A DNA stretch of 32,000 nucleotides from Bacteroidia bacterium (GTDB taxonomy: Bacteria; Bacteroidota; Bacteroidia; M30B66). The stretch spans positions 69,481 through 101,480 of the forward strand of contig JAGYKL010000009.1 in the NCBI GenBank assembly GCA_018401705.1. Reading direction: 5' to 3'. A model generated the notes under the pieces. It was not told the origin of the DNA and ran no database searches. It saw nothing but the letters and a program-made list of their open reading frames with translations. Numbering within the stretch: position 1 is the stretch's first letter; every line of letters starts with the position of its first letter. The translations under genes and the position numbers were made by a program. This document shows positions 1 to 26,565 of this stretch, in pieces.

Positions 1-201
1 GCTCAAGAAATGAAATTAAATAGCTCTTTAATTTCCCCCCTAGAATTAATAAATGAACCGGGCGGTGTAATTCGTCCATTAAACACAACATTAAATACAC
101 AAAAAGCACAAATGTTAGGACTTAAATTCCCATCCATGGATGAAAACATCAAACAGCTGTGCTACAATTTCAAATCATTTATTCAAAAGCATGGAATTTA
201 A
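1..201 (+). CDS. 3' end of a gene entering from the left edge; C-terminus resembles RmlD-type (dTDP-4-dehydrorhamnose reductase family) SDR sugar-nucleotide reductases
   Basis: Frame 1 is open from base 1 to TAA at 199-201. The tail GGVIRPLNTTLNTQKAQMLGLKFPSMDENIKQL fits the RPxNSxLxxxK...W...L C-terminal pattern of RmlD-like reductases. It overlaps the next start (ATG 191) by 11 nt. Confidence 0.45.
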   Translation, partial: AQEMKLNSSLISPLELINEPGGVIRPLNTTLNTQKAQMLGLKFPSMDENIKQLCYNFKSFIQKHGI

Positions 202-1264
202 AATAGGAAATCGTTTAGTAGGTGAAAATCACGCCCCGTATTTCATTGCTGATGTTGGCGCTAATCACGATGGAGACTTATCCAGAGCATTTCGTTTAAT
301 TGAGCTTGCAAAGGAAGCTGGTGCAGATGCAGTGAAGTTTCAAAATTTTCAAGCTTCAAAAATCGTAAGCAAGTTTGGATTCGAGAATTTAGGCGGTGCT
401 AAAGACCATCAGGCGAACTGGAAAAAGAGTGTTTTTGAGACTTATGAAGATGCAAGTATTAGCATGGACTGGACTGTTTTATTAAAACAGAAGTGTGATG
501 AAGCTGGAATAACTTATTTCACAAGCCCATACGATTTTGCATCTATTGATCACATTGACCCATTTGTAGAACTGTATAAAATAGGTTCTGGAGATATTAC
601 TTGGACCGAAATTATCGATTATATAGGGTCAAAAGGCAAACCTGTATTATTGGCAACGGGAGCCGCTTCATCTGAGGATGTTCATAGAGCAATGAACATT
701 TTGCAAAAACACACTGATAACATTTGTCTGATGCAGTGCAATACTAACTATACGACCAATAAAGAAAAATACAAGTATGTCAATTTGAATGTATTAAAGA
801 GATACCAACAGGAGTTTCCGGGTGTAGTGCTCGGGCTCTCAGATCACACTCTTGGTATTGCAACGGTTGTGGGAGCTGTCTCACTAGGAGCTCGTATATT
901 TGAGAAACATTTCACCGACGATAATAATCGCATTGGGCCAGATCATTCGTTTGCAATGAATCCTGAAAATTGGAGACAAATGGTTGATAACGCTAACGAA
1001 GTTTATCAAGCTCTTGGAGATGGGATTAAGCGAATAGAGGAAAATGAGAAAGATGCTGTTATTGTTCAACAAAGATCACTTAGAGCAGCGGTAGATCTTC
1101 CTATTGGAAAGGTCATCTTAGCTGAAGACCTAGAAGCACTTCGTCCGATACCAAAAGACGGTATCCAACCATACAAATTAGACGAGATCGTTGGGTCAAC
1201 CTTAATTAAACCATTAGTAAAGGGGGAACACATTACATATTCACATTTTAATACGAAAAAATGA
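191..1264 (+). CDS. NeuB-family nonulosonic acid synthase (PseI/LegI/NeuB type)
   Basis: ORF 140-1264; the likely true start is ATG 191 (MEFKIGNR...). N-terminal IGxxHAPYFIADVGANHDGDLxxAxxLIxxAKEAGADAVKFQ and internal LSDHTLG are hallmarks of NeuB-type synthases, and a SAF-like C-terminal domain is present. Sequence alone does not resolve PseI, LegI or NeuB. Confidence 0.85.
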   Translation: MEFKIGNRLVGENHAPYFIADVGANHDGDLSRAFRLIELAKEAGADAVKFQNFQASKIVSKFGFENLGGAKDHQANWKKSVFETYEDASISMDWTVLLKQKCDEAGITYFTSPYDFASIDHIDPFVELYKIGSGDITWTEIIDYIGSKGKPVLLATGAASSEDVHRAMNILQKHTDNICLMQCNTNYTTNKEKYKYVNLNVLKRYQQEFPGVVLGLSDHTLGIATVVGAVSLGARIFEKHFTDDNNRIGPDHSFAMNPENWRQMVDNANEVYQALGDGIKRIEENEKDAVIVQQRSLRAAVDLPIGKVILAEDLEALRPIPKDGIQPYKLDEIVGSTLIKPLVKGEHITYSHFNTKK

Positions 1265-1791
1265 TCAAAGGAAAAAATGTTGGTCTGAGAGCAGTTGAGA
1301 AAGAAGATCTTCAACTATTAAGAGATTGGAGAAACATTGCTCACTTCCGAAAGCATTTCAGGGAGCATAGAGAACTGAATTTGTTTAATCAAGAAAATTG
1401 GTTTCAGAAAGTCTCTGCTAATCCCAATGATTTTATGTTTATAATAGTAAGACTTTCAGACAATAAACCACTTGGAGCATGTGGCTTATTGTACACTAAT
1501 TGGGTAATTCGATCTGCTGACTATTCTTTTTACATAGGTGATGAAGAAGCTTACATTGACGATAAAGGTTACTCGGAAGAAGCATCTCATTTACTAATTG
1601 ATTATGGGTTTAATCAAATAAATCTCAATAAAATTTGGATGGAACTTTATGAATTCGATTCATCCAAAATAAACTTTTTTACAGAAAAATTTAATTTTAA
1701 GAAGGATGGTATCTTAAGACAGAACTGTTTTGAGGGGGGGAAATACCATGATTCTTTGGTAATTTCATTATTAAGGGATGAATACAAATAA
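1261..1791 (+). CDS. GNAT-family N-acetyltransferase (PseH-like candidate)
   Basis: 4-nt ATGA overlap with the synthase gene. 176 aa with an N-terminal V.LR..EKEDL..L..WRN pattern typical of RimL/PseH-type GNATs. The context is a nonulosonate locus. Confidence 0.7.
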   Translation: MIKGKNVGLRAVEKEDLQLLRDWRNIAHFRKHFREHRELNLFNQENWFQKVSANPNDFMFIIVRLSDNKPLGACGLLYTNWVIRSADYSFYIGDEEAYIDDKGYSEEASHLLIDYGFNQINLNKIWMELYEFDSSKINFFTEKFNFKKDGILRQNCFEGGKYHDSLVISLLRDEYK

Positions 1792-1922
1792 TTTAAACTC
1801 TAATTTTAAAAATTAGAAGGAAGGATACTAAGACAATTTAATTGACTGCTAATTTTCTAGCGATTCTCATTAGCAAAGAACTATTGGAAACTTTAGGCAT
1901 AGCTAAAATTGCCACTAATTGC

Positions 1923-2666
1923 TCAATTATCTGATTCTGAATCGAATAAAAACTTAAACTTCTGATAGAAAAATAACACATTCTGCAAGTCCGATCTATT
2001 TGTTTTTGAATAGTCCGGATTAGAATATATTAGTGCTGCTCTCATATAATCTTCCCTAGTGTCTACTGTTACTCTTATGAAAGAATAATCAATTCCATTT
2101 AGAGGTTGAAGGCTATGAGTTTTAAAGTCGTTGCAATGCTTAAATTTGTAGGTAACATGTTCTCTGTCTGCTTCCGACAAATCATCTCTCTCTGACATTT
2201 TCAAAAAAGAATTACCATTGAAAATTTCAATATTCATTCCATAAGGCAAGCCGACAGTATTTGTATAATCAAAATAGCTTTTCAAATGCTTTTCTATAAC
2301 ATCATCAAGAATTGGAATGTCAATAAATGGGTTGTCGGAAGTAATTCTAACAATGCAATCAGGTAGTTCCTTTAATGCAATAGCTCTGAACCTGCTTAAA
2401 ACATCATTTTCGTCGCCAGCAAAATATTCAATGTGAGATTGTTTAAGAAAATCAATTAATTTATCCTGCTCTTTTGTATTTGAAGTAGCAACAATTATTT
2501 TTTCAATATAGTTACTTCGATTTAGCTTCTGAATAATATTCGAGATTATTGGCATACCATGAGCTAAAGGCAATGGAAGCAATACCTTTCCCGGTAATCT
2601 ACTAGAAGTTAATCTTGCCTGAATGATGGCAATTACCTTAGGTTTAGCTAATTGTCCACCCTCCAT
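1923..2666 (-). CDS. SpsF/PseF-like cytidylyltransferase (CMP-nonulosonate synthetase family)
   Basis: N-terminal VIAIIQARLTSSRLPGKVL is the cytidylyltransferase signature shared by SpsF, PseF and NeuA family proteins. It is the last gene of the long minus-strand operon and overlaps the SDR gene by 23 nt. Confidence 0.75.
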   Translation of the reverse strand: MEGGQLAKPKVIAIIQARLTSSRLPGKVLLPLPLAHGMPIISNIIQKLNRSNYIEKIIVATSNTKEQDKLIDFLKQSHIEYFAGDENDVLSRFRAIALKELPDCIVRITSDNPFIDIPILDDVIEKHLKSYFDYTNTVGLPYGMNIEIFNGNSFLKMSERDDLSEADREHVTYKFKHCNDFKTHSLQPLNGIDYSFIRVTVDTREDYMRAALIYSNPDYSKTNRSDLQNVLFFYQKFKFLFDSESDN

Positions 2667-3426
2667 CTACAGCAAAATTTTGTCCGGTTATATACGCTGA
2701 AAAGTCTGACGCTAGAAATGCACATATTCCTTCAAGATCTTCAGGCCTTCCAATTCTTCTTAATGCAGTTTTATTTTCAAGATGCTTAATAAATTCTGCA
2801 TTTTCCTGAACTTTAGGATTTGGGAATGGTCCCGGGCTAATGCAATTGACAGTTATACCTTTGGGGCCTAAGTAGTTAGCAAAATACCTAGTTAACTGTT
2901 GAATAGCGGCTTTTGCAGCGCCGTAGTTTGGCGGACTTTGAAATTCCAGACAATTCTCATATATCCTGAAATCTGGAGATATTGTGCCGTACATAGAACT
3001 TATATTTATTATTTTGGCATTTGTGTTTAAATACGGCAGAAGTTCTCTGATACAACGGAATACAGAACCAAGAGCACCTTCAATTCCAATGGAGAAATCT
3101 TGATCAGACATTTTCTCGGGAATTTCACTTTTGCCAAAATATGCATTATTGAATAATGCATCAATTCTATTGAAATTCTTATAAATATTCAAATATGCTA
3201 CCTTAACGGATTCTAAATCAGAAACATCCACATTTTCAAAATAAAGATTTTTATGATTGCTTATTTGGGATTTCAATTCATCGAATTTTTCTTGAGATCG
3301 CCCAAGAACTACTGCAACACCTCCATGATTAAGAATCCCTTTTGTTATAGCTGAGCCTAAATGACCATATCCGCCAGTAATTAATGCTACTTTATCTTCA
3401 AGTCCGATGCGTTTATCTGTTGTCAT
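2644..3426 (-). CDS. short-chain dehydrogenase/reductase (SDR) family oxidoreductase
   Basis: Cofactor motif ITGGYGHLGSA, NNAYFG, and catalytic YGAAKAA (YxxxK). 260 aa. Confidence 0.85.
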   Translation of the reverse strand: MTTDKRIGLEDKVALITGGYGHLGSAITKGILNHGGVAVVLGRSQEKFDELKSQISNHKNLYFENVDVSDLESVKVAYLNIYKNFNRIDALFNNAYFGKSEIPEKMSDQDFSIGIEGALGSVFRCIRELLPYLNTNAKIINISSMYGTISPDFRIYENCLEFQSPPNYGAAKAAIQQLTRYFANYLGPKGITVNCISPGPFPNPKVQENAEFIKHLENKTALRRIGRPEDLEGICAFLASDFSAYITGQNFAVDGGWTIS

Positions 3427-4280
3427 TTTATTTTATGCCAATTATAAGGAAGTACTATTTCACTGTCAAAATTAGGTAAAGCAAGTTGGCTATTTACCTG
3501 TGGATTAAAAGTCATTAATGAGTCTATATTGTTTTGCAATTCTTTTGCAGACTGAACACCAATAACTACTTTATCTATAAATGGATTTTTTAAGCAGAAT
3601 TCCAATAAAAAAGCTGCGCGTTCAGATTTATTTGGATAAAGAAACTGAATCTCTTTTAAAATACTTTTTATTGGCAAGAAATAGTCGGGGATTTCTTCTT
3701 TAAAGAATAAACCTTGAAGGAAAGCAGATCGTGTATGAATTTCGCAGTTATGCGTTTTTAAGGTTTCGAAATACTGTTCAAAACGACGATCTAAGAAATT
3801 ATACTGAACTTGAACAAGATCTGGGATACAGCCCAAATCAAGGAGTTTTTCGAGTTGTTCAGTTTTATAGATTGAAAAACCAATTCGACTTATTAGCCCT
3901 TGATCTTTAAGCGATTTCAATTGTCTCCAATAATTTGGGCTCTCAATTAGAGTATCTGCTGAATGAGCTATATAGCCATACAGTTTTTTTAAATGCAGAT
4001 TCTTAATACTTGCATGAAATTCGTCTTCAATTGAACTTTCACCAATTATGGAAGGAAATTTTGAAACAACCTGCCAATTGTTCAAATTCAATTGACCAAG
4101 AACAGCCTCCGAATTGCCATAAGATCGGGCTGTATCGACAGTTACAATATTATTAAAAAAAGCAACATCGATAATCTGTTTAACTTCTTCAAATTGAACT
4201 ACTCCATCTGTATTATTAATCCCATAATCCAATCCAAATTGCACACTACCGAGAGCCAGTTTGGACAGATTTAATTTCAT
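3423..4280 (-). CDS. aldo/keto reductase family oxidoreductase
   Basis: 285 aa. The LGSVQFGLDYG N-terminus and overall layout are typical of AKR TIM-barrel proteins. 4-nt overlap with the downstream SDR gene. Confidence 0.6.
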   Translation of the reverse strand: MKLNLSKLALGSVQFGLDYGINNTDGVVQFEEVKQIIDVAFFNNIVTVDTARSYGNSEAVLGQLNLNNWQVVSKFPSIIGESSIEDEFHASIKNLHLKKLYGYIAHSADTLIESPNYWRQLKSLKDQGLISRIGFSIYKTEQLEKLLDLGCIPDLVQVQYNFLDRRFEQYFETLKTHNCEIHTRSAFLQGLFFKEEIPDYFLPIKSILKEIQFLYPNKSERAAFLLEFCLKNPFIDKVVIGVQSAKELQNNIDSLMTFNPQVNSQLALPNFDSEIVLPYNWHKIK

Positions 4281-4323
4281 TTCCTTGCAGGGTGATGGGT
4301 TTAATTAATATGTGACTCTCAAA

Positions 4324-5316
4324 TTAATGCTTATTGAAAATAAGTGATGCAAGCTCAGCTACTCCTAGCCACTGATCATTCGTTCCCGAATTGTAGCAAA
4401 AACCAGGTTCTACCATCTTCCCACCTTTATCTTCATAATACTTTTGGATTCTGGGGTTGCCTTGTGGCAGAATAGCGTAATAACGATCCAAATCAATGGT
4501 ATTGTAAGAATCTGAGCTCGTAATCATTTCTTCATGCATTTTCTCTCCAGGACGAATACCTACAACTTCGGTTCTAATTCCGGGAGCTACGGCTTCGGCA
4601 ACATCAGTAATTTTATAAGAAGGAATCTTAGGGACAAAAATTTCTCCTCCTATTGCATGTTCAACAGCAAAAAGAACCATTTCAACACCTTCTTCAAGCG
4701 AGATATTAAAACGGGTCATACCTGGATCTGTGATAGGTAGCACACCTTCATCTTTTTTCTTCAAGAAGAATGGTATCACAGAGCCTCGGCTCCCCATCAC
4801 GTTACCATAACGGACAACTGAGAATCTAACATCATGTTTACCTTTAACGTTATTTGCTGCCACAAATAATTTATCAGAACAAAGTTTTGTTGCACCGTAA
4901 AGGTTAATAGGAGCTGCAGCTTTATCGGTTGAAAGAGCTACTACAGATTGAACACCGCAATCGAGGCAAGCATCAATAATATTTTGAGCACCCAAAACAT
5001 TCGTTTTTATAAACTCGAATGGGTTGTATTCAGCGGCAGGCACTTGTTTAAGAGCAGCAGCATGTATAACGACATCAATTCCCTCGAAAGCTCTTTTTAA
5101 ACGATCGGCATCTCTGATGTCTCCCAAAAAATAGCGCATGCAAGGATATTTCGAATCAGGAAATTCTTGCTGCATCTCAAATTGTTTCAGCTCATCTCTT
5201 GAAAATACCACAAGACGTTTTACATCCGGGTATCTTTCGAGAATAATTTTCACCAGTTTCTTTCCTAATGATCCGGTACCTCCGGTAATAAGTATTCGTT
5301 TATCGTTTAAAGGCAT
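4324..5316 (-). CDS. pseB: UDP-N-acetylglucosamine 4,6-dehydratase (inverting), PseB/FlaA1 type
   Basis: ILITGGTGSLGKK Rossmann motif, DIRD, YGATKLCSDKLF (YxxxK). Length (330 aa) and full-length pattern match PseB/CapD-like dehydratases. Confidence 0.85.
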   Translation of the reverse strand: MPLNDKRILITGGTGSLGKKLVKIILERYPDVKRLVVFSRDELKQFEMQQEFPDSKYPCMRYFLGDIRDADRLKRAFEGIDVVIHAAALKQVPAAEYNPFEFIKTNVLGAQNIIDACLDCGVQSVVALSTDKAAAPINLYGATKLCSDKLFVAANNVKGKHDVRFSVVRYGNVMGSRGSVIPFFLKKKDEGVLPITDPGMTRFNISLEEGVEMVLFAVEHAIGGEIFVPKIPSYKITDVAEAVAPGIRTEVVGIRPGEKMHEEMITSSDSYNTIDLDRYYAILPQGNPRIQKYYEDKGGKMVEPGFCYNSGTNDQWLGVAELASLIFNKH

Positions 5317-5330
5317 AATATTCCGAGTAA

Positions 5331-6608
5331 TTATTGTTCAAATTTAAATGGTAGATCAACATAACCAACAAGATATAATGGGTTTACATCAGGTGGCATC
5401 TGAATGACCAATGGAGGTAGCAGATTATCTACTACATCAAAAGCTGTTTCAGTGCGGCTATCGCCAAGCCAATAATAAGTTTCAAATACTCCTGGCCTAA
5501 GAGCAATTGTTGGGAATGAAACTCTGAAATTAATTCTATCTCCAGGCTTCTTACCTGAAATATCAACTTTAATTCGACCTGTTGTTGTTACAATGTCACG
5601 AGTTCTTCCGGAGCGAAACGCAACATTTGTCATAAGTTCTTTTATAGGCTCATTAATAATACAAGTCATATCAAAATGAATATCATTACCTGGCAAAAAC
5701 TCTGTGCATTCGGCTCCTTCGGCATTTACCATACTCACATTTTCAAAACGCACAGCTCCGTTTCCTCTTCTTACACTTGGGTCATTTAATGCATCTTTAT
5801 CGGTAAGATTCACACGCATATTTTGCTGAACATAGTTGCGAATTACATCGTCGGTATTACCGTCCATTATAATTCCGCCTTGCTTCAATAATATTGCTCG
5901 AGAGCATAAATCGGAAACTGCGCCCATGTTGTGACTGACAAATATTACTGTGCGACCTTGGTCTGAAACATCCTTCATTTTTCCAAGGCATTTAGCCTGA
6001 AACTCAGCATCTCCAACAGCTAAAACCTCATCTATGATAAGTATATCAGGGTCAAGATGTGCCGCTACAGCAAAGGCCAAGCGAACATACATGCCTGAAG
6101 AATAACGTTTTACAGGAGTGTCGATGTATCTTTGAACTCCAGCAAATTCAACAATTGCATCAAATTTCTTTCTGATTTCTTCTTTGCGCATTCCCAGAAT
6201 AGCGCCATTAAGAAATATGTTTTCCCTGCCTGTTAGATCAGGATGAAATCCGGTTCCTACCTCAAGTAAACTTGCAACTTTACCTTTAATCTTTATTTCT
6301 CCACTACTAGGCGATGTCGTTCTGGAGAGAACCTTTAGCAAGGTTGACTTCCCTGCCCCATTTCGACCTACTAGTCCTACTATCTCGCCTTGGTTAACTT
6401 GAAAATTGATATCCTTCAGAGCCCAAACATAATTTGAAATTGCAGAAGCAGCTTCTCTATCGTTTGTTGAAGCCAGCTTGATGTTTGGATTCTCCTTCCC
6501 GCGTAAGCGGTAAAAAAAAGCACGAATATCTTCAGTTAATGTAGCAGAACCTACATCTCCAAGTCTAAAGACTTTTGAAATATCTTCTGCTTTAACAACT
6601 ACAGACAT
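5331..6608 (-). CDS. wzt: polysaccharide/O-antigen ABC exporter ATP-binding protein with C-terminal extension (Wzt-like)
   Basis: Walker A GRNGAGKST, ABC signature YSSGMYVRLAFA, Walker B ILIIDEVLAVGD. An extra domain of about 160 aa follows the NBD (about 5334-5816). Confidence 0.85.
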   Translation of the reverse strand: MSVVVKAEDISKVFRLGDVGSATLTEDIRAFFYRLRGKENPNIKLASTNDREAASAISNYVWALKDINFQVNQGEIVGLVGRNGAGKSTLLKVLSRTTSPSSGEIKIKGKVASLLEVGTGFHPDLTGRENIFLNGAILGMRKEEIRKKFDAIVEFAGVQRYIDTPVKRYSSGMYVRLAFAVAAHLDPDILIIDEVLAVGDAEFQAKCLGKMKDVSDQGRTVIFVSHNMGAVSDLCSRAILLKQGGIIMDGNTDDVIRNYVQQNMRVNLTDKDALNDPSVRRGNGAVRFENVSMVNAEGAECTEFLPGNDIHFDMTCIINEPIKELMTNVAFRSGRTRDIVTTTGRIKVDISGKKPGDRINFRVSFPTIALRPGVFETYYWLGDSRTETAFDVVDNLLPPLVIQMPPDVNPLYLVGYVDLPFKFEQ

Positions 6609-6633
6609 ACTCGGATTTTAGAAGATAAATAAA

Positions 6634-7512
6634 TCATACAGTGTCCATGAAGTCTTTTTCGGTTCGATTAAACATAACCAAACCAATTACTAATGCAACA
6701 ATTGCAAATACAGTTGAATAAGCCAAAAGAGGCCAACTAATTTTATCTATACCTAAAAAAATATATCTAAATGCCTCAATGATTGAGGAGAGCGGATTGA
6801 TTTCAAAAATCCAACGATACTTATCAGGAATTATTGATGAAGGATAAATAACGGGAGTTGCATACATTAATAGTTGTACGGCAAATGGAACCATATTACT
6901 CAAATCGCGGTATTTGGTTGTTAGAGAAGAAATTATAATTCCGAATGACAATCCAATCACCATCATTAATAATAGCAGAAATGGCAAAAGCCATAAATAT
7001 TGAAGTTGTGGACTGGCAGGATCTCCCGACCAAACGAAATAAGCTAATGTTATACTGAGTAGGATTAACTGAACGCCAAATTTAATAATAGCTGAAATCA
7101 CAGAAGAAAGAGGCACTATTAAACGAGGAAAGTATACTTTGCCAAAGACTCCAGCATTTGCCCTAAAAGTTGTTGCTGTTCTATTTATACAATCAGCAAA
7201 ATAACCCCAGGCAATTAATCCACTCAAATAAAACAATATGGGATTTATCCCTCCTGTTGACACTTTAGCTATTAGTCCAAATAGAATGAAATAAATGAAG
7301 GTGTTAAGAATGGGAGGTAAAACAAACCAGAAAGCCCCTAAAAGAGTTTGCTTATAAACTGTTACAATATCTCTTCTAACGAGAAGAAGCAGCAAATCAC
7401 GGTAATTCCAAACTTCCTTCAAACGCAAATCAAACCACCCTCTTGATGGTCTGATAATCAAACTCCAATTTTTATCGTTTGTTGTGTTCACTTGCTTGGC
7501 AGACTTGGGCAA
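6634..7512 (-). CDS. wzm: ABC-2 type polysaccharide exporter permease (Wzm-like)
   Basis: Hydrophobic protein with about 6 TM segments. N-terminal LKEVWNYRDLLLLLVRRDI is typical of ABC-2 (Wzm/TagG/KpsM) permeases. It lies immediately upstream of the Wzt-like ATPase. Confidence 0.85.
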   Translation of the reverse strand: MPKSAKQVNTTNDKNWSLIIRPSRGWFDLRLKEVWNYRDLLLLLVRRDIVTVYKQTLLGAFWFVLPPILNTFIYFILFGLIAKVSTGGINPILFYLSGLIAWGYFADCINRTATTFRANAGVFGKVYFPRLIVPLSSVISAIIKFGVQLILLSITLAYFVWSGDPASPQLQYLWLLPFLLLLMMVIGLSFGIIISSLTTKYRDLSNMVPFAVQLLMYATPVIYPSSIIPDKYRWIFEINPLSSIIEAFRYIFLGIDKISWPLLAYSTVFAIVALVIGLVMFNRTEKDFMDTV

Positions 7513-7562
7513 AACTAATTTTTTTTATGATAAGTCTATGTAATTGAAAATGATGTGCTTAA

Positions 7563-8447
7563 TTAAAACTGAGTCTTCACTTCCTGATATGTTCGTCTTA
7601 TTCCTTCCTCGAGATTTATAGCTGGATTCCAGCCAAAAGACCTCAGGCGACTGCTATCCATTAACTTACGAGGAGTTCCATCGGGTTTTGATGTATCAAA
7701 ACGAAGTTCACCTTCAAAACCAACGACCTTTTTTACAAGCATAGCCAGGTCCTTAATGCTTATATCTGAGCCATAGCCAACGTTAACAAAAAGTTCTTCA
7801 TTGTAATTCTCTAATAGAAATACACACGCATCAGCTAAATCATCTACGTGTAGAAACTCTCTTAGAGGAGCACCTGTTCCCCATATTTCAACTTCAGAAG
7901 CTCCAGCAATCTTGGCTTCGTGCATTTTACGAATCAAAGCAGGCAGTACATGCGAATTCTTTAAATCGTAATTGTCGTTTGGCCCGTAAAGGTTTGTTGG
8001 CATGGCAGAAATGAAATTACATCCGTATTGCCTTCTAAAACTTTCGCACATCTTGATGCCAGCAATCTTAGCAATTGCGTATGGTTCATTAGTTTGCTCA
8101 AGTAAACCGGTCAACAAACTTTCTTCTTTCAACGGTTGTTCGGCCATTTTGGGATAAATGCACGAAGAGCCCAGAAATAATAATTTCTTCACATTTGTCC
8201 TCCAGGCACTGTGGATGATATGATTTTGAATAGCCAGATTATCGTACAGAAAATCAGCACGATAAATATTATTGGCTAAAATCCCACCAACTTTGGCAGC
8301 TGCTAAAACAACCACATCAGGCTTTTCTGTTTCGAAAAAAGCTTCGACATCCGCCTGACGGCGTAAATCTAATTCGGCAGAGCTTCGTCCAATCAAATTG
8401 GAATAACCTTTTGCTTCCAAAGCTCTCCAAATAGCCGAACCTACCAT
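7563..8447 (-). CDS. fcl: GDP-L-fucose synthase (GDP-4-keto-6-deoxymannose 3,5-epimerase/4-reductase)
   Basis: Near full-length match to the Fcl/WcaG pattern ([35 protein letters not shown]). Homology continues upstream of the first ATG (KIYIAGHRG, to about 8480) with no ATG, GTG or TTG before the in-frame TAA at 8490-8492, so the annotated start is doubtful. Confidence 0.85.
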
Positions 8448-8489: not shown

Positions 8490-9789
<1,300 letters not shown>

Positions 9790-10130
9790 CTATGTATTTT
9801 AAACGACTATACATGTTTAAAAACGACTTATGTCAATCCAAACTCTTAAATTGTTCCCGGGTAGGGGCTTTTGGGTTTATCCCTCAACTATTTCAGAGAA
9901 TCAGTCAAGCCAATTATTCCAAAATCACTTAATATTTATTCACACAAAATGTTAATTACCTAAAACCTTAACAAGCTTATACGTTTAAGACGGTTAAAAA
10001 TGGCTTATCTCAAACCTAATACCTTTTCACTATTCCTTTACCTACCACGCTATCTTTATTAACTTGGTTGGCTATCAGGTTCTAGACAAACGTAGAAACC
10101 GCCAGTTTTTCCTTTAGTAATTTTTCACTT

Positions 10131-10850
10131 AGTTTGTCGAATAAAGTCCCCTTCGGCAAGCTCGAGACATTCTTAAGGGAGCTAAAAGCCTTGTGAAGCA
10201 GGACATTGGCTTAAGGCGGAGCTTATCGAGTAAAGTCCGCGGAGCTTGTCGAGTAAAGTCCTGCTGAGCTTGTCGAGTAAAGTCCTGCTGAGCTTGTCGA
10301 AGCAGGACATTGGCTTAAGGCGGAGCTTATCGAGTAAAGTCCTGCTGAGCTTGTCGAGTAAAGTCCTGCTGAGCTTGTCGAGTAAAGTCCTGCTGAGCTT
10401 GTCGAAGCAGGACATTGGCTTAAGTCGGAGCTTATCGAGTAAAGTCCTGCTGAGTGAAGCAGGACATTGTCGAGTAAAGTCCTTTGTCGAAGCAGGGACA
10501 TTGGCTTAAGGCGGAGCTTGTCAAGTAAAGTCCTGGCGTCGAGTAAAGTCCTGAGTTGAGTCCTGAGTTGTCGAAGCAGGACATTGGCTTAAGTCGGAGC
10601 TTATCGAGTAAAGTCCTGCTGAGCTTGTCGAAGCAGGACATTGGCTTAAGTCGGAGCTTGTCAAGTAAAGTCCTGCTGAGCTTGTCGAAGCAGGATTAAG
10701 GCGGAGTAAAAGTCCTGCTGAGCTTGTCGAAGCAGGACATTGGCTTAAGGCGGAGCTTGTCAAGTAAAGTCCTGCTGAGCTTGTCGAAGCAGGACATTGG
10801 CTCAAAACGGAGTGTCAGGACTTGGCTTACGGCAGAGCTTGTCAAAGCAG
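10131..10850. repeat. higher-order tandem hairpin-repeat array (24-nt and 33-nt units, 105-bp superunit)
   Basis: Unit A is GAGCTT(G/A)TCGAGTAAAGTCCTGCT. Unit B is GAGCTTGTCGAAGCAGGACATTGGCTTAAG(G/T)CG. Superunits A-A-A-B lie at 10219-10322 and 10323-10427, followed by decayed copies. The hairpin GTCCTGCT-GAGCTTGTCGA-AGCAGGAC occurs at 10282-10308, 10387-10413, 10613-10639, 10712-10738 and 10769-10795. Confidence 0.9.
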
Positions 10851-10919
10851 TTTTATCACCTCAACTTATAACTTTGCAGCAGATTAAAGGGTTAATTTCT
10901 AAAAAGAACAAATTAACAC

Positions 10920-11498
10920 ATGCAAGAAACGTACACTCAAAACAAAACTTTCGATAGGATCGACTTCTCAAAACCCACTAATAAAAGGCGAATACGAAAA
11001 AAAACTGCATTTTTAACAGTTGCAATTTTGCTGATAGTAATCTTGATGGATTTAAATTCATTGAATGTGAATTCAATGGATGCAATCTTTAGTTTAGTGA
11101 GATTAAGCAAAACGGCATTTCAAGAATCAAAATTTATTGATTGCAAAATGTTGGGCCTTCGCTTCGATACATGCAATGAGTTTGGGCCTTTTCGTTTGAG
11201 AACTGCCAACTTAATCACTCCTCCTTCTATAAAACAAAAAATCAAAACAGACGGTTTTCAAAGATTCACGATTGCTTGAGGCTGACTTTAGCGAGTGTGA
11301 TTTGACAAGTGCTTTATTTGAAAATTGCGATTTTGCAGGTGCTACTTTGATTTCACGAACCTCGAGAAAGCTGGATTTCCGCACATCATATAAATTATTC
11401 AATTGATCCGTAATCAAATCGAATTAAGAAAGCCAGGTTTTCAATCTCAGGCATTTCGGGACTACTCGATAAATATGAATATTGAAGTAGAAAAATAA
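10920..11498 (+). pseudogene. pentapeptide-repeat protein, multiply frameshifted
   Basis: Pentapeptide-type segments are spread over all three + frames, including FIECEFNGCNL, LSKTAFQESKFIDCKMLGLRFDTCNEFG, FSFENCQLNHSSFYKT, LEADFSECDLTSALFENCDFAGA and SISGISGLLDKYEIEVEK. Several frame switches coincide with A or T runs. A TAACTTTG (-7-like) motif lies at 10869-10876. Confidence 0.65.
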
Positions 11499-11624
11499 CG
11501 AAAGACTTCTATCAGCTCAAAACTGCTTCAATTTTATCAATAATGAGCACTTCATCATATGTATTTAGAAACATCATACAAAGAATTCTAAACCTCTCTA
11601 GCCAACATCTGTTACCTTTGCAGC

Positions 11625-12225
11625 ATGCAAACCTATCCATCTAAATTATTAGAAGATGCAGTTAATGAGATGTCATCTCTTCCTGGTATTGGAAGAAAAC
11701 GGCTCTAAGGTTAGTTTTGCATTTGTTAAAAAGAGAAGCTTCTGATGTAGAACGCTTTTCATCTTCTTCCTCAAACTTCGCAATGAACTACATTACTGCA
11801 AGCTTTGCTTTAATATTTCAGACTCTGGAAACTTGCGATATATGCAGTGATTCTAACCGCGACTCTCATATAATTTTGCGTGGTTGAAGACATAAAGAGA
11901 TGTGATGGCTATAGAAAACACAAGGCAATTCAGAGGTGTATATCATGTTCTTGGCGGAATTATTTCACTAATGGATGGCACTGGCCCTGCAGACCTTAAT
12001 ATTGAAAGCCTTGTAAACAGAACTATGGATGAGTCTGTTGAAGAAGTCATCATGGCTTTGAGTTCTACCATGGAAGGAGACACAACTAACTTCTACATCT
12101 ACCGAAGGTGAAAGATTTACCCATCAGAGTGCACGCTGGCAAGAGGGGTTTCTGTGGGTGATGAGCTAGAATACACTGACGAAATTACCTTGGGCAGATC
12201 AATTTTAAACAGAACCCCTTTCTGA
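11625..12225 (+). pseudogene. recR: recombination protein RecR, frameshifted
   Basis: MQTYPSKLLEDAVNEMSSLPGIGRK then a premature stop. RecR continues in other frames: LVLHLLKREASDVE, the Cys-rich zinc-finger region, and Toprim [25 protein letters not shown]...[16 protein letters not shown] (ORF 11902-12111). The C-terminal [23 protein letters not shown] ends at TGA 12223-12225. A TACCTTTG -7-like motif lies at 11613-11620. Confidence 0.8.
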
Positions 12226-12240
12226 CCAAACCTTGCAACG

Positions 12241-13096
12241 ATGAGCACCCTTGAAAAATATCTCATTATTTATCGCTTGTTAAATTTAGCCACTGTTTTT
12301 GCATTGCCTTTTGCAATCATTGGTTTTTTTCTGGGAATTGAAGCGCTTGGTTCATCACCCGATTGACCATCTTTATTAAAATAGTTCTTTGTATGGTCTT
12401 CGCAAGAAGCGCCTATGGGCTTCAACAGATATATAGATCGGAAATTTGACGAAAAAAACGAACGAACTGCAGTTCGTGAAACCCTTCAGGAATAATATCT
12501 CCATCAAAATGCACTTGCATTTGTGATTATTATGAGTCTTGCTTTATTGGTACAACAGCATTTATCAATCCAATTATGTTTTGCCCTTTCTCCGGTTGCC
12601 CTGGCAGTGGTTTTGGGTTATAGCTATACAAAGCGTTTCACCTGGCTTTGTCATATTGTGCTTGGTTTAGGTTTAGCTCGCTCCTATTGGTGCTTATCTT
12701 GCAGTGACCGGCGCATTTGATGCTGCCGCTGTACTTCTCTTTCCTGTGCTTTTTTGGACTGCAGGGGTTTGATGTGATTTATGCTTTGCAGGATGAGGAT
12801 TTGGATAGAAACGAGCAGCTGCATAGCATACCCGTTTGGTTGGGAAAGAAAAAGGCTCTTGAACCTTTCCTCTGCTTTGCATGCATTAACAGCAGCTTTT
12901 TTTATTTATGGCAGGACGAGAAGGCGGATTTGAATGTTCTATTTTATTGGACTTTCGGTTTTTCTAATCCTGGTTTATCAGCATAGCATTGTAAAACCTA
13001 ACGATTTAAGTCGAGTGAACTCGCTTTGGCACAACTAACGGCATCGCCAGTGTTGTGTTCGCGGTTTTCTTCCTTTTGGAATATTTCCAACCCTAA
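12241..13096 (+). pseudogene. UbiA-family polyprenyltransferase, frameshifted
   Basis: The N-terminal membrane segment from ATG 12241 stops after about 40 codons. UbiA-like pieces continue in other frames, including the [18 protein letters not shown] piece of ORF 12523-12720 and [27 protein letters not shown] in 12717-12986. The reconstructed C-terminus ends at TAA 13094-13096. Confidence 0.65.
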
Positions 13097-13106
13097 CCAA
13101 GAACTT

Positions 13107-13270
13107 ATCAAAGTCGGTCTGAGAGAGGAGCTTGTCGAAGACCGGCATTAACATATCAAAGTCGGTCTGAGCTTGTTGAAGACCGGCATTAACATATCAA
13201 AGTCGGTCTGAGCTTGTCGAAGACCGGCATTAACATATCAAAGTCGGTCTGGAGCTTGTCGAAGACCGAT
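13107..13270. repeat. 41-bp tandem hairpin-repeat array (about 4 copies)
   Basis: The unit is ATCAAAGTCGGTCTGAGCTTGTCGAAGACCGGCATTAACAT. Copies lie at 13107-13154 (with a 7-nt insertion), 13155-13195, 13196-13236 and 13237-13270 (truncated). The hairpin GTCGGTCT-GAGCTTGTCGA-AGACCGGC occurs at 13113-13146, 13161-13187 and 13202-13228. The array lies between convergent gene ends. Confidence 0.9.
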
Positions 13271-13283
13271 CAACTCCAACACA

Positions 13284-14514
13284 TTATTCTGGCTTAATAC
13301 CAACTCTTCCTAGGTAGCCCAAAAGCCGAGACCCTGATTTTACATAAATATGTTGGTTTTCTTCAGAATACAATCCTGCCCACTGGTGGTAAACATACTG
13401 TGAAGGACCTCCACTTAAAGCCTGGAATCTCAATTCCAAATTGAAAACCATTGTGACCGGAGAAAGTCACATCAATATCTTATGGTCAGTTGTAACTTGC
13501 TTATTCCAATGTGAAGGATCATGTGACAAAAGCAATTTAACTGGAACATCAGGCATTCCGGCTTTAGCCTTTTAGAATATCTCCTTTCTTTGGAAAATTT
13601 AAAGCTCCACCCCAATTTTCAACTCCTATTAAGCCAATTTTTTCGCCGCCTTTTTCAAGTATACGATGCTCATTTAAAAGTAAATCCCAGCCCATTTCCT
13701 TGTGAATTTCCTTCAACCTGTCAAGGTTTGCTTTCTTAGCTTCTTCAGTTTCCCAAACTACATAATCGCCGTAATCGTGATTTCCAAGAATAGAAAAAAC
13801 TCCAAGCGGAGCTTGTAACTTCTTCCATATGTTAATATGCGGCTCTGCTTCTGATGAACGATCATTCACTAAGTCGCCCGTAAAGAAAATCACATCCGGC
13901 TTTTCAGCCATAATCATCTCAACAGCCCTTTCAAATGAGCTCCCATTGTAAAATGAACCACTGTGTACATCAGAAATCTGAACGATTTTTAATCCCTCAA
14001 ACGCAGATGGCAGATTTGGTAAAACCACACTTTTTCTTCGCACTTTAAAGTCGAATGCTGTTTTAACCATACCATAAATCATTGTGCTTAAAGGTATTGC
14101 AGCTACGCCCAAAGCTGTATAGCTTAAAAACTTAGCTCTGCTAATGCCATCTTCACCTCCGCCGGAGCCAATTCCTAAATTGAAGAAATGTCCTGACCAA
14201 CGCACCAGTCTTTGTAAATCATCTACCAATAAAAACAGGCTTCCTACAATTTTACTAAGCACCAAAATAAAAATCAAACAAAACACATACTGATAAATGT
14301 ATTTCGAAAACAGTGGGTCATTCCATGTAATCATTGAAAATGCCCCAAAAGCAAGCGAAAAAATTGTTATTCCCCAATAAATTCTAGATGCCAAAACCTG
14401 TCTCGACAACGTCCAGTCGGATGTTACCGTTTTGATAGATTGGAAAAAGTAAAAGTCAATCAACAGCAGAATGCCGAAGAAAATCAGAAATCGAATGAGC
14501 ATGAATGTCGCCAA
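13284..14514 (-). pseudogene. membrane-anchored calcineurin-like metallophosphoesterase with frameshifted 3' end
   Basis: The intact ORF 13564-14514 has N-terminal TM segments and the motifs ISDVHSG, TGDLVND and GNHDYGD. Downstream, homology continues in other frames (LLLSHDPSHW, the DVTFSGH piece, FQFGIEIPGFKW, GRVGIKPE) to TAA at 13284-13286. Confidence 0.65.
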
Positions 14515-23346: not shown

Positions 23347-23955
23347 ATGTTTCTTGAAAACACCATTCATCCACAAAAACGTCACGGCTGGATAGAAGTT
23401 ATCTGCGGCTCAATGTTTTCGGGCAAAACAGAGGAACTTATTCGTAGATTAAAACGTGCAAAGTTTGCAAAACAACGTGTAGAAATTTTTAAACCTGCAG
23501 TTGACATCAGATATGATGACGAAGATGTTGTGTCGCATGATTCAAATTCTATTCGTTCAACTCCCGTTGAGTCTTCTCAAAGCATCTTACTGCTTGCAGG
23601 CGATGTAGAGGTAGTTGGGATTGACGAAGCTCAGTTTTTTGACAAAGAACTGGTTAACGTATGTAATGAGCTCGCAAATCTCGGTAGCCGAGTTATTGTT
23701 GCCGGCCTTGACATGGATTACCGCGGAAACCCTTTTGGCCCCATTCCATCGCTACTTGCAACTGCTGAGTATGTTACTAAGGTTCATGCCATTTGTATGA
23801 TTTGCGGAAACCTTGCCAATCACTCTCACCGTCTTGATACAAGCAATGAAAATCTTGTTTTACTTGGTGAAACAAATGAATATCAACCATTATGCAGAGC
23901 CTGTTTTTATAAGCTCAACCCTTTGCCTTATTCTGGTAAATCGAAAAATATATAA
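23347..23955 (+). CDS. tdk: thymidine kinase
   Basis: P-loop [21 protein letters not shown], and a C-terminal zinc-ribbon (CMICG...CRAC). ATG 23347 is preferred over 23278. Confidence 0.9.
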
Positions 23956-26411: not shown

Positions 26412-26455
26412 ATTAACAGGCTCTTTCGTTTTTTACACTTTTTTCGAATTTCATA

Positions 26456-26565
26456 ATACTATCTACCTGATACTAATTACTTAATACTATCTACTTGATA
26501 CTATCTACTTGATACTATTTACTTGATACTATTTACTTGATACTATCTACTGATTACTAATACAT
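26456..26565. repeat. 14-bp tandem repeat, about 8 copies (ATACTATCTACTTG consensus)
   Basis: Units start at 26456, 26470, 26484, 26498, 26512, 26526, 26540 and 26553. The central copies are near-identical and the outer ones are diverged. The array is intergenic, about 45 bp upstream of the gldA-like start. Confidence 0.9.

Follow-up and report, generated by a model that had tools for sequence, protein, structure and literature searches.

The window analysed here, a 32-kb stretch of DNA from a Bacteroidia bacterium, carries two repeat arrays in which one hairpin design recurs. Array 1 lies in a divergent intergenic region upstream of a likely promoter, with pentapeptide-repeat, recR, and ubiA genes on its 3' side, while array 2 is followed 3' by the end of a convergent phosphoesterase gene. 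The putative promoter element, TAACTTTG, matches the Bacteroidetes -7 box consensus (TAnnTTTG), adjoins array 1 on its downstream side, and is conserved in the relative L027, an independent assembly of the same locus at ~90% identity. The features are as follows:

8500..13560, no strand: indel-rich, low-quality stretch enclosing both arrays (comparison with the ~90% identical relative)
10131..10850, plus strand: array 1, a complex tandem array of the hairpin unit (sequence reading, TRF, covariance model)
Within 10131..10850, plus strand: array 1 higher-order repeat of 105 nt, consisting of the linker centre GAGCTTATCGA, then GTAAAGTCCTGCT + GAGCTTGTCGA three times, then AGCAGGACATTGGCTTAAGGCG
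10140..10174, minus strand: opening unit of array 1, with a short stem and the centre in inverted orientation, reading GAGCTTGCCGA on the minus strand (8 bits only)
10219..10405, plus strand: two runs of a 24-nt half-unit (centre and 5' arm, without the 3' arm), 3.5 copies each (TRF)
10282..10308, plus strand: complete hairpin GTCCTGCT-GAGCTTGTCGA-AGCAGGAC (43.6 bits)
10387..10413, plus strand: complete hairpin, sequence as at 10282..10308 (pairing, covariance model)
10613..10639, plus strand: complete hairpin, sequence as at 10282..10308 (pairing, covariance model)
10670..10696, plus strand: hairpin with 3' arm AGCAGGAT, outermost pair G-T (32 bits)
10712..10738, plus strand: complete hairpin of array 1 (43.2 bits)
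10769..10795, plus strand: complete hairpin of array 1 (pairing, covariance model)
10869..10876, plus strand: TAACTTTG, ~45 nt upstream of the pentapeptide-repeat ATG (weak, pattern-only match)
13110..13270, plus strand: array 2, 41-nt unit AAAGTCGGTCTGAGCTTGTCGAAGACCGGCATTAACATATC, ~3.4-4 copies (TRF; 33 and 23 bits)
13202..13228, plus strand: cleanest array 2 hairpin GTCGGTCT-GAGCTTGTCGA-AGACCGGC, with a T-G wobble at pair 2

The hairpin is 27 bases long and reads AAAGTCCTGCT-GAGCTTGTCGA-AGCAGGACATT in array 1 and AAAGTCGGTCT-GAGCTTGTCGA-AGACCGGCATT in array 2, so that both follow the layout GTC-N5-GAGCTTGTCGA-N5'-G(A/G)C with an identical 11-nt centre. Between the array 1 stem (GTCCTGCT/AGCAGGAC) and that of array 2 (GTCGGTCT/AGACCGGC), C-G becomes G-C, T-A becomes G-C, G-C becomes T-A, and T-A becomes T-G. 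Direct reading therefore confirmed the shared design and the compensatory stem changes (three swapped pairs and one T-G wobble) described in an earlier sequence-only reading of this DNA. All eight pairs form in the six complete array 1 hairpins and in two clean array 2 hairpins, the head next to the window hairpins is AAAGTC, with an A before the GTC, and the array hairpins share a single orientation. Allowing at most one mismatch, the 11-mer centre occurs 25 times in the window compared with 0.30 expected, a count reached by 0 of 100 shuffles. An alternative GCTT/AAGC fold, which had been disfavoured before, is not conserved, since the 3' arms of the wider family described below start AGG, AGC, ACC, AAT, or AGT.

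The arrays are not simple rows of hairpins. TRF reported periods of 24, 57, and 105 nt in array 1 and 3.4 copies of a 41-nt period in array 2. In much of array 1, three copies of the 24-nt unit (centre and 5' arm) precede a single 3' arm, every linker holds the second centre copy GAGCTTATCGA, and beyond the 105-nt repeat there are 57-nt units followed by degenerate ones. The half-unit runs at 10219..10405 are the signature of slippage or unequal exchange. Thus, the earlier view that the arrays are not slippage debris stands for the stems, whose covariation is real, but fails for the arrays themselves, which are probably products of slippage or unequal exchange, judging by the 24-nt half-units and the copy numbers in L027. 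In array 2, copy 1 has an extra GAGAGAG, the centre of copy 2 has T in place of C, and copy 4 has one additional G and an incomplete, truncated 3' arm.

Compared with the ~90% identical relative, 8500-13560 contains ~120 indels, about half of them in homopolymers, while the flanking genes contain almost none. As a result, the bracketed genes are frameshifted in the window assembly; in the whole stretch five genes are broken (gmd, pentapeptide-repeat, recR, ubiA, and the phosphoesterase C-terminus), and all five are intact in L027. Since this stretch is of low quality, array copy numbers and irregular units are unreliable, and the latter may be sequencing errors. Taken further, the arrays as a whole might be artefacts of a poorly polished long-read stretch, as suggested by the confinement of the indels to this region and by the resemblance of the irregular array 1 units, and of the odd insertions in array 2 copies 1 and 4, to read errors. 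However, L027 has the same hairpin type at the same locus, the repeat units are internally consistent across hundreds of bases, and the hairpin family occurs in hundreds of unrelated records; we therefore regard an artefact as extremely unlikely and limit the doubt to copy number and fine detail.

Array 1 of L027 has two units only, with the centre inverted inside the same flanks, the unit type to which the first unit of window array 1 (10140..10174) corresponds. The L027 hairpins, with the stem GTCCTCCT, score 41.9 bits with the covariance model. L027 lacks array 2 and has a CrtO gene in its place, showing that the position of array 2 is a deletion or rearrangement junction relative to L027. 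In relatives with a 78% identical ABC-F protein, synteny breaks at the array 2 position and no hairpin was found, ~22 kb of one such relative being covered. The two arrays do flank pentapeptide-recR-ubiA in the window, as had been pointed out, but they do not delimit a cassette, since L027 combines all three genes with a short array 1 but lacks array 2.

Several known elements were considered for the arrays and set aside. No T-run was seen 3' of the window hairpins, and intrinsic terminators were rejected on this ground. A CRISPR array was rejected, the linkers being themselves repeated and no cas-like domain occurring among the window ORFs scanned, as were type III toxin-antitoxin repeats, the genes 3' of the arrays being pentapeptide-repeat/recR/ubiA or phosphoesterase rather than ToxN/AbiQ-like. 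Small ribozymes such as the hammerhead were discarded for lack of the core CUGANGA...GAAA, and attC and dif/Xer sites on their defining features. The absence of a GTAG head, of CRISPR architecture, and of a transposase from the window was borne out.

The hairpin is not specific to the window; one centre occurs with many complementary stems in several phyla, plasmids, and phages. Scans of genomes, metagenomes, viral contigs, and plasmids yielded 129 distinct copies with ~48 stem combinations, the arms mostly complementary; among the carriers are Bacteroidota, Cyanobacteria, Proteobacteria, a Clostridia MAG, and tailed phages. The same centre with other complementary stems was found, for example, in the Clostridia MAG, in Ferruginibacter, in a Bacteroidota MAG, in a high-GC MAG, and in IMG/VR contigs, and unannotated copies lie on plasmids of Gloeothece, Comamonas, Sphingobium, Rhizobium, Methylobacterium, and Hymenobacter. 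The two Hymenobacter copies are on a 6.4-kb 'plasmid' that looks like an inverted-duplication assembly. Two loci in the 32 kb of the window have copies, and a single Comamonas plasmid of 647 kb has them in 15 places. No match came from cultured phage genomes or from a set of 5,426 E. coli genomes. Metagenome contigs with the hairpin span 29-71% GC. All of these collection scans demanded the exact centre, so its conservation across the family is partly by construction, and independent evidence on this point comes only from copies not selected by centre and from the two window arrays. In a reverse search with the stem TGTCATCCT...AGGATGACA fixed and the centre free, only seven loci were found in viral contigs, one of them related (TCGCTTCACTC).

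The family unit is (T/C)GTC-A-Y-N-N-T / GAGCTTGTCGA / A-N-N-R-T-GAC, and the three middle pairs of its 8-bp stem (P1) are free to change yet remain complementary. The base before GTC is T in 61% and C in 20% of the 129 copies, giving a (T/C)GTC head in 81%. Among 132 pattern matches in metagenomes, 76 had five and 45 had four of the five free pairs complementary; that is, 121 of 132 had at least four, compared with ~7% expected. In the family pair counts, 81% of cells were paired, and covariation was 0.375 compared with 0.148 +/- 0.009 in shuffles (0/500 reached 0.375) and 0.16 or less when partners were slid. The covariation behind the claim of a folded hairpin is thus very strong at family level. 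A covariance model built almost wholly from foreign copies scored array 1 at 43.6 bits and array 2 at 33 bits and found nothing else in the 32 kb besides the window array hairpins. The window lineage, with stems GTCCTGCT and GTCGGTCT and the L027 stem GTCCTCCT, is a divergent branch of the family.

The centre had been taken for a sequence-specific loop. Rather than an open loop it is probably a structured cap, since position 4 covaries with position 7, and 5 and 6 are free. In copies not chosen by centre, positions 4/7 are C-G (CCTGT in 17 copies, CCCGT in six, and also CTCGT, CATGT, and CTAGT), T-A (TTTAT in three), or T-G (in two), positions 5 and 6 are unconstrained, and either T or C stands at position 8; some variants have an entire additional hairpin inserted between GAG(C) and (G)TCGA. 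According to sequence rules and this covariation, tandem sheared G·A and A·G pairs would extend the helix on the GAGC strand, followed by G3-C9 and then by C4-G7, which would close a loop of 2 nt and leave T8 as a bulge. With such a cap, of G(CUUG)C type on a Y-GA-R tandem mismatch, one strand alone would give a hairpin that is compact and very stable. Mismatches are an ambiguous guide to the folded strand: in the window lineage the G-T wobbles fall on the GAGC strand, and the same strand of high-GC copies often has A·C at pair 4 (31 cases).

These A·C pairs also bear on the possibility that a single-strand DNA enzyme (HUH/Y1-type or other) recognises or nicks the hairpin, which would make the family an actively mobilised non-autonomous element on the model of REP and RAYT. 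The enzyme would then read both the (T/C)GTCA head and the conserved centre. Retention of A at stem position 4 when its partner becomes C suggests sequence-specific reading of the 5' GTCA head, and the predominance of T or C before GTC points the same way. HUH-system origin hairpins have a conserved centre with a variable stem, a layout that the family resembles, down to the compensatory stem changes seen in HUH-Rep origins such as the geminivirus/circovirus nonanucleotide loop. A Coxiella RAYT-linked REP has almost the same centre, and the presence of the element across phyla, on plasmids, and in phages is also in keeping with an enzyme. However, HUH-Rep origins are single-copy, lie beside a Rep gene, and have an open nicked loop, whereas copies of the GAGCTTGTCGA hairpin are numerous and dispersed, come without Rep, and seem to be base-paired in the centre; the free positions 5/6 and covarying positions 4/7 fit structure better than base-specific reading. 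No candidate enzyme gene was near any of ~130 copies. Co-occurrence with RAYT genes, which the sequence-only reading had raised, found no support: an HMM of four RAYTs detected no RAYT-like ORF among ~7,500 ORFs from ~1 Mb of carrier loci plus the window. A tblastn search of plasmids with E. coli RayT returned 26 records, none of them a hairpin-carrying plasmid, and the three plasmid RAYT loci inspected are flanked by GTAG REPs rather than by the GAGCTTGTCGA hairpin. A search for filled and empty phage sites through the endolysin beside a hairpin pair gave only identical phages or relatives at ~40% identity, and hence no clean pair, and no target-site signature was seen. We therefore consider an enzyme site quite unlikely.

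Genomic context is REP-like. Flanking genes were tandem for 46 copies, convergent for 22, and divergent for six (p = 4e-4), showing that copies sit downstream of genes and avoid divergent promoter regions. Array 1, between divergent genes, occupies a context that the family otherwise avoids. At least three further flank pairs were present in 18% of copies compared with 1.6% expected, and a minority lie inside A-run/T-run palindromes. Back-to-back plus/minus pairs and clusters occur in phage L012/L014/L020, in L091 and L136, and on a Comamonas plasmid, and in a phage structural operon copies fill almost all intergenic gaps. Relative to flanking genes, 26 copies are sense and 20 antisense; relative to local GC skew, a proxy for the replication strand, the split of 26 to 41 is not significant (p = 0.09).

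The position of most copies 3' of genes, together with the phage operon, could be taken to mean that the hairpins act in cis at the RNA level (by stabilising transcript ends, as sites of processing, or as attenuators), the arrays tuning expression of a pentapeptide-recR-ubiA operon. The CUUG-type cap is a stable motif in RNA as well, and the Rfam family of Aggregatibacter sRNA 41 (RF02901, AaHKsRNA41) holds the same motif pair, its consensus containing CUGAgCUUGcCGAAG and the inverse copy UUCGgCAAGcUCAg in one long hairpin, an arrangement like that of the back-to-back pairs in phage contigs. However, RF02901 is a 187-nt model of one sRNA locus that matches the phage pairs only, at 35.7 bits against a gathering score of 97, and leaves the window arrays unmatched. 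None of the 4227 Rfam families matched the window at gathering thresholds, and none at E up to 10 on 10050-13350 was relevant. Orientation is unbiased with respect to transcription (26 to 20), the L027 centre is inverted within the same flanks, array 1 is upstream of the likely promoter in a divergent region, and the window hairpins lack a T-run. An RNA element is thus rather improbable, and of the earlier proposal that the hairpin folds as RNA or as single-stranded DNA, single-strand folding stands and a strand-specific RNA role is unlikely.

Regular spacing of the conserved core (41 and 57 nt), and its occurrence in either orientation in other genomes, would also suit iterated double-strand protein binding sites of iteron, operator, or centromere-like type, the site being the 11-13-bp core TGAGCTTGTCGAA. 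Duplex binding gives no reason for the covarying arms, the covarying positions 4/7, or the hairpin inserted inside the core; most copies elsewhere are solitary, and it is implausible that one binding protein should be shared by Clostridia, Cyanobacteria, and phages, making such sites very unlikely.

No family name was found, and full-text literature searches with the 11-mer, its complement, longer versions, and encoded peptide strings returned no relevant paper. The earlier remark that the element could not be placed in a known family holds in that there is neither a GTAG head nor an Rfam match, but it can be placed near REP/BIME-like elements, with the CGTC/TGTC-tagged type closest in layout. 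It is a short intergenic imperfect palindrome that folds as a single strand, lies in tandem and convergent gaps, and forms inverted pairs or clusters, as GTAG-type REPs and BIMEs do. GTAG-type REPs number ~100 or more per genome and are species-specific; the GAGCTTGTCGA family spans phyla and phages, and its hairpin lacks the GT(A/G)G head and has no RAYT found with it. A GAG...CGA at the stem foot is shared with Pseudomonas REPs. The centre is near-identical to that (GAGCTTGCGA) of the RAYT-linked Coxiella burnetii REP GTAGGTTGGGCTGAGCTTGCGAAGCCCAAC, which reads GTAGGTTGGGCT-GAGCTTGCGA-AGCCCAAC (Nunvar et al. 2010, PMC2817692). CGTC/TGTC-tagged REPs have an unpaired tag, 8-9-bp stems that begin A-T, 4-5-nt loops, a CCA tail, and no dedicated transposase (Di Nocera et al. 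2013, PMC3733652). The present family likewise consists of short intergenic palindromes with a (C/T)GTC 5' tag and an A-T stem start, and it shares with these REPs the mostly inverted (head-to-head) dimers, enrichment between tandem and convergent genes, occurrence in several phyla including Bacteroidetes, and the lack of a known dedicated transposase. It differs in that GTC pairs with a 3' GAC, the 11-mer centre is conserved, the CCA tail is missing, and the variable part is the stem rather than the loop. After the tag come a 5-bp stem (A-Y-N-N-T), the 11-nt centre, and a 3' end GAC, so that the tag agrees with the CGTC/TGTC type but the 8-9-bp stem, 4-5-nt loop, and CCA do not; the dimensions fit only if G·A, A·G, and G-C are counted as stem (eight pairs plus CTTGT).

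Taken together, these results lead us to conclude that both arrays are probably local tandem amplifications of a short, self-folding palindromic repeat belonging to a very widespread REP/BIME-like family. Its covariation shows that the element folds as a single strand, and the context counts show a REP-like habit, that is, lying 3' of genes, in inverted pairs or clusters, and at the tips of longer locus-specific palindromes. Since orientation relative to transcription is random, folding would occur mainly as single-stranded DNA rather than as sense RNA. Judging from its distribution, the hairpin appears to be mobile, spreading between lineages via plasmids and phages. Selection for folding, possibly aided by templated quasi-palindrome correction, would keep the stems complementary, and the repeated centres and arms would promote replication slippage or unequal exchange, generating the 24-, 41-, 57-, and 105-nt arrays and unstable loci. 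Any cellular role would be REP-like, as a stable structure at transcript ends or in DNA.

A bolder reading, which we consider possible but unlikely, is that bacteria at large and phages share a structured single-strand module, with an 8-bp variable stem, a G·A/A·G plus G(CUUG)C-type cap, and an optional second helix, which conserved machinery would specifically recognise and which would constitute a new mobile or regulatory class instead of a passive REP-like palindrome. The machinery may be an enzyme of a new kind that mobilises single-stranded DNA, or else a factor of the host or phage and, if this reading is true, the copies throughout the phage structural operon would point to a role in expressing phage genes or in handling the genome.

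At none of the places where it was found is the element annotated. It is a source of spurious ORFs and unstable tandem arrays, and its location in the window is both a trouble spot of the assembly and a rearrangement junction; it is therefore of practical importance for assembly and annotation. Normally, a REP is particular to one species, its stem being conserved and its loop variable. The GAGCTTGTCGA family reverses this pattern, its 11-nt centre remaining constant from Clostridia to Cyanobacteria, plasmids, and tailed phages while the stem compensates, and this raises the question of whether the centre is kept constant by an intrinsic, ultra-stable fold or by a shared protein.

Direct reading of the window, which comes from an uncultured bacterium of the Bacteroidia, agreed with the sequence-only reading in finding two arrays of one hairpin design, in which an 11-nt centre is common to both and the 8-bp stems (P1) differ, as had been described, by three consecutive compensatory pair swaps and a fourth pair changed from T-A to T-G. 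With up to one mismatch allowed, the 11-mer centre occurs 25 times in the window vs 0.3 times expected by chance.

Hairpin units of the two window arrays
10131-10850, plus strand: array 1 hairpin, AAAGTCCTGCT-GAGCTTGTCGA-AGCAGGACATT
13110-13270, plus strand: array 2 hairpin, AAAGTCGGTCT-GAGCTTGTCGA-AGACCGGCATT
Array 1, 105-nt unit: centre copy in the linker (GAGCTTATCGA); 5' arm plus centre, three times; one 3' arm and its flank

In a direct scan of the 32 kb, array 1 had six hairpins with eight of eight pairs and array 2 had two clean ones; all of them are on the plus strand, and the rest of the 32 kb has none. TRF gave periods of 24, 57, and 105 nt for array 1 and 41 nt x 3.4 for array 2. 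Array 1 is more complex than a row of hairpins, being built on the 105-nt higher-order unit, and in its first unit (10140-10174) the centre is inverted.

The arrays lie in poor sequence, and one rival explanation is that they are an assembly artefact. The genes between ~8.5 and 13.56 kb (gmd, pentapeptide-repeat, recR, ubiA, and the metallophosphoesterase C-terminus) are all split into short ORFs, and the same five genes are all intact in L027, a close relative with the same locus in an independent assembly (ENA scaffold; 87-91% nucleotide identity). Compared with L027, the window has ~120 indels within ~8500-13560 (101 single-base; about half in homopolymers), the flanking genes being nearly free of them, and in-frame fragments of the broken genes retain ~95% protein identity. 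To judge from this comparison, the interval has the look of long-read sequence left unpolished, or of a filled gap, and not of real pseudogenes or gene decay. The arrays are real, since L027 carries this element at the matching position; their copy numbers and irregular units are unreliable, examples being 10438-10588 and the additional GAGAGAG at 13121-13127.

The genes on either side of array 1, gmd and pentapeptide-recR-ubiA, are divergent; those flanking array 2, ubiA and phosphoesterase, are convergent. At the array 1 site, L027 has just two 57-nt units, whose hairpin, with the stem CTCCT/AGGGG (one G-T), keeps the AAAGTC...GACATT flanks and is on the other strand. A terminal half-unit, CTGCTGAGCTTGTCAAAG, is common to L027 and the window and comes after L027's two units; window array 1 therefore expanded from that terminal unit. 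Array 2 is absent from L027 at the ubiA-phosphoesterase position, where ~950 bp with a CrtO-family gene (L027 6926-7886) replace the array 2 segment of the window (13087-13270), and the window in turn is missing this gene between ubiA and phosphoesterase. In more distant relatives (ABC-F protein 78% identical), gene order breaks exactly at the array 2 point. On these comparisons the arrays are fast-changing, strain-specific amplifications, with array 2 at the junction of a deletion or rearrangement. No conserved cassette is delimited by the two arrays, which bracket the three-gene block in the window; L027 is without array 2. A TAACTTTG box at 10869-10876, also kept in L027, fits the Bacteroidetes -7 consensus and would, on weak evidence, put array 1 upstream of the operon promoter. 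Upstream of array 1, a ~70-nt segment (AAACGACTTATGTCAATCCAAACTC...GTTCCCGGGTAGGGGCTTTTGGG) with a terminator-like hairpin at its end is single-copy in the window (9800-9876) and occurs twice in L027 (4030-4105 and 4236-4296), on both sides of a stretch of N; this points to a further repeat or to faulty scaffolding. Separately, a 14-nt tandem repeat (ATACTATCTACTTG, ~7 copies; TRF also gave a 28-nt period) occupies window 26447-26561, the intergenic space between an ABC-transporter gene and a murF-alr fusion gene (23955-26411, one 818-aa ORF with MurF-like Mur ligase and alanine racemase domains), and the L027 alignment breaks there.

That the hairpin should have further copies with complementary arms was borne out in MAGs, viral loci, and plasmids. 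Four places (Clostridia, Ferruginibacter, Bacteroidota, and high-GC MAGs) matched a pattern with flanks and centre fixed and any stem allowed, their stems being ATCCT/AGGAT, ATGTT/AACAA, ATAGT/ACCAT, and ATCCT/AGGAT; in three of the four MAGs (not Clostridia) a second inverted centre or near-variant follows within some tens of bases. With the looser pattern GTC-N5-GAGCTTGTCGA-N5-GAC, 22 viral loci matched and fell into two clear groups, true hairpins with 4-5 of the 5 pairs and chance matches in GC-rich coding sequence with 0-3. Among the 132 matches listed from metagenome contigs (contig GC 29-71%), all five free positions were paired in 76 and four in 45, vs ~7% expected. De-duplication left at least 129 real copies with at least 48 stem combinations, the most frequent stems among the 129 being ATCCT, ACCCT, ATGGT, ATGCT, ACACT, and ACTCT. 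By BLAST, the element is also on plasmids of Gloeothece, Sphingobium, Rhizobium, Sinorhizobium, Methylobacterium, Hymenobacter, and others, and one Comamonas replicon has it in 15 places; hardly any of these copies is annotated. It was not found in cultured-phage records or in E. coli.

Covariation was measured on an unfiltered alignment of 150 pattern matches, one row of which came from the window. Paired cells made up 81% overall, double changes at the three middle pairs numbered 67, 64, and 27, and the covariation score was 0.375 vs 0.148 +/- 0.009 in shuffles (0 of 500 reached 0.375), falling to 0.16 or less when partners were slid. A covariance model built from the same alignment, window row included, gave 43.6 bits for the array 1 hairpins, 33 and 23 bits for those of array 2, and 41.9 and 24 bits for both L027 copies, which lie on the opposite strand. 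The covariation counts against a further rival, an array of binding sites in duplex DNA. Stem complementarity may be kept by selection, by templated quasi-palindrome correction, or by both.

Part of the centre's constancy is built in, as every scan required it; centre variants were taken from additional hairpins in the same loci, chosen without regard to centre. Positions 4 and 7 are C-G in CCTGT (17), CCCGT (6), CTCGT, CATGT, and CTAGT, and otherwise T-A in TTTAT (3) or T-G in TTTGT (2); positions 5 and 6 were seen as TT, CT, CC, TC, AT, and TA, and position 8, absent from the Coxiella REP, is T or C. Between GAG(C) and (G)TCGA, some copies have a nested copy or a whole additional hairpin, giving a fold of P1, internal loop, and P2. 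The "loop" is probably a structured cap. At its foot, G1·A11 and A2·G10 would form tandem sheared pairs, the Y-GA-R context holding on both strands; above them G3-C9 would pair, then C4-G7 would close a two-base loop with T8 bulged. From the geometry of G·A pairs and the stability of CUUG/CTTG mini-loops, as known from nucleic-acid structure, we infer a G(CUUG)C-type cap. ViennaRNA, which does not model such a cap, predicted a plain 8-bp stem with an 11-nt loop. On the complementary strand T·C and C·T would replace the G·A pairs, so that the cap would be available to one strand only. Two carrier loci are of separate note: L020 (4380-4460) has a nested copy, GTCATGCT-GAGC-[AGT GAGCTTGTCGA ACT]-GTCGA-AGCATG, in which a small centre with 3-bp arms sits within another copy's centre, and L156 (1660-1725) has a related hairpin with another centre (complement of GAGTGAAGCGA), TGTCATCCT-TCGCTTCACTC-AGGATGACA, within a perfect 15-nt outer palindrome (catcttgtacatcgc ... 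gcgatgtacaagatg).

Gene context was taken from a simple ORF call. Among copies with genes on both sides, arrangements were tandem for 46, convergent for 22, and divergent for 6 (divergent rare, p = 4e-4 vs 25%), and 27 further copies lay within called ORFs, mostly near ORF ends on high-GC contigs. Relative to flanking genes, orientation was sense for 26 and antisense for 20, and relative to local GC skew it was 26 to 41, not significant. Because there is no transcriptional orientation bias and the cap would exist on one strand only, the evidence points to folding in single-stranded DNA over a sense-RNA function; one rival reading takes the hairpin as a cis-regulatory RNA. At least three extra complementary, locus-specific flank bases were present in 18% of copies vs 1.6% expected, so the element is often at the tip of a longer hairpin; in some copies the extended flanks are terminator-like palindromes (A-run/stem/T-run). 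The base 5' of GTC is T in 61% and C in 20%, and A at stem position 4 is kept though its partner is C (31 cases). Two copies often stand back to back in inverted orientation, and such a pair folds into a single long hairpin in which its centres pair with each other. Clusters in L091 and L016 include partial 24-nt units resembling those of array 1, and L136 and Comamonas have two-hairpin modules in duplicate.

In the tailed-phage structural operon of L012 (IMGVR_UViG_3300025012_000327, 190-8160; head closure, tail, tape measure, endolysin), nearly every intergenic gap holds one or two copies in both orientations, as also in L014, L020, and L102. Phage operon hairpins have at least eight different stems, and in a composite variant that recurs, 21 inserted nt (GTCCAAAGGACTCCTTTCGGA) separate the 5' arm from the centre. 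On the Comamonas endophytica plasmid NZ_CP106882.1 (L169, 990-1230), a ~95-130 nt module in tandem duplicate holds plus and minus hairpins ~35 nt apart within outer arms CCGTTCGT...ACGAACGG, with an insert within the centre in one copy, and looks like a MITE- or BIME-like composite. The 6.4-kb Hymenobacter psoromatis 'plasmid' (CP014770.1, L174) has two family hairpins and the same three genes (dtd and two hypothetical) as an inverted duplication, possibly an artefact of assembly.

Rfam has no family that covers the arrays of the window; RF02901 (Aggregatibacter sRNA) contains the same motif pair and matches phage pairs only, far below threshold. Among described REPs, the RAYT-linked Coxiella REP has the centre GAGCTTGCGA, and Pseudomonas REPs have GAG...CGA at the stem foot (Nunvar et al., PMC2817692). 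CGTC/TGTC-tagged REPs have A-T-initiated stems, form head-to-head dimers, and occur in Bacteroidetes without a dedicated transposase (Di Nocera et al., PMC3733652). Our family is like the latter in its tag, A-first stem, and genomic behaviour, and differs in its stem and loop dimensions, paired 3' GAC, and cross-phylum centre. The remaining rival is that the hairpin is an HUH-type recognition site. RAYT searches of carrier loci and plasmids found none in association with family hairpins. Because of these likenesses and differences, and since RAYT was not found, we place the family with the REPs as a variant of its own, outside every described family. The motif is unprinted in the openly accessible full texts searched, and an earlier description may exist.

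Overall, what the sequence-only reading observed was confirmed, and its interpretation was supported only in part. It had held the arrays not to be simple slippage debris; the arrays themselves, with copy numbers differing in L027, are best read as slippage or unequal-exchange amplifications of a REP/BIME-like palindromic repeat, which is likewise the best-supported reading of the family. The window instance is modest and lies in poor sequence, and the family behind its hairpins is a broad and unannotated one whose structure is unusual among REPs.
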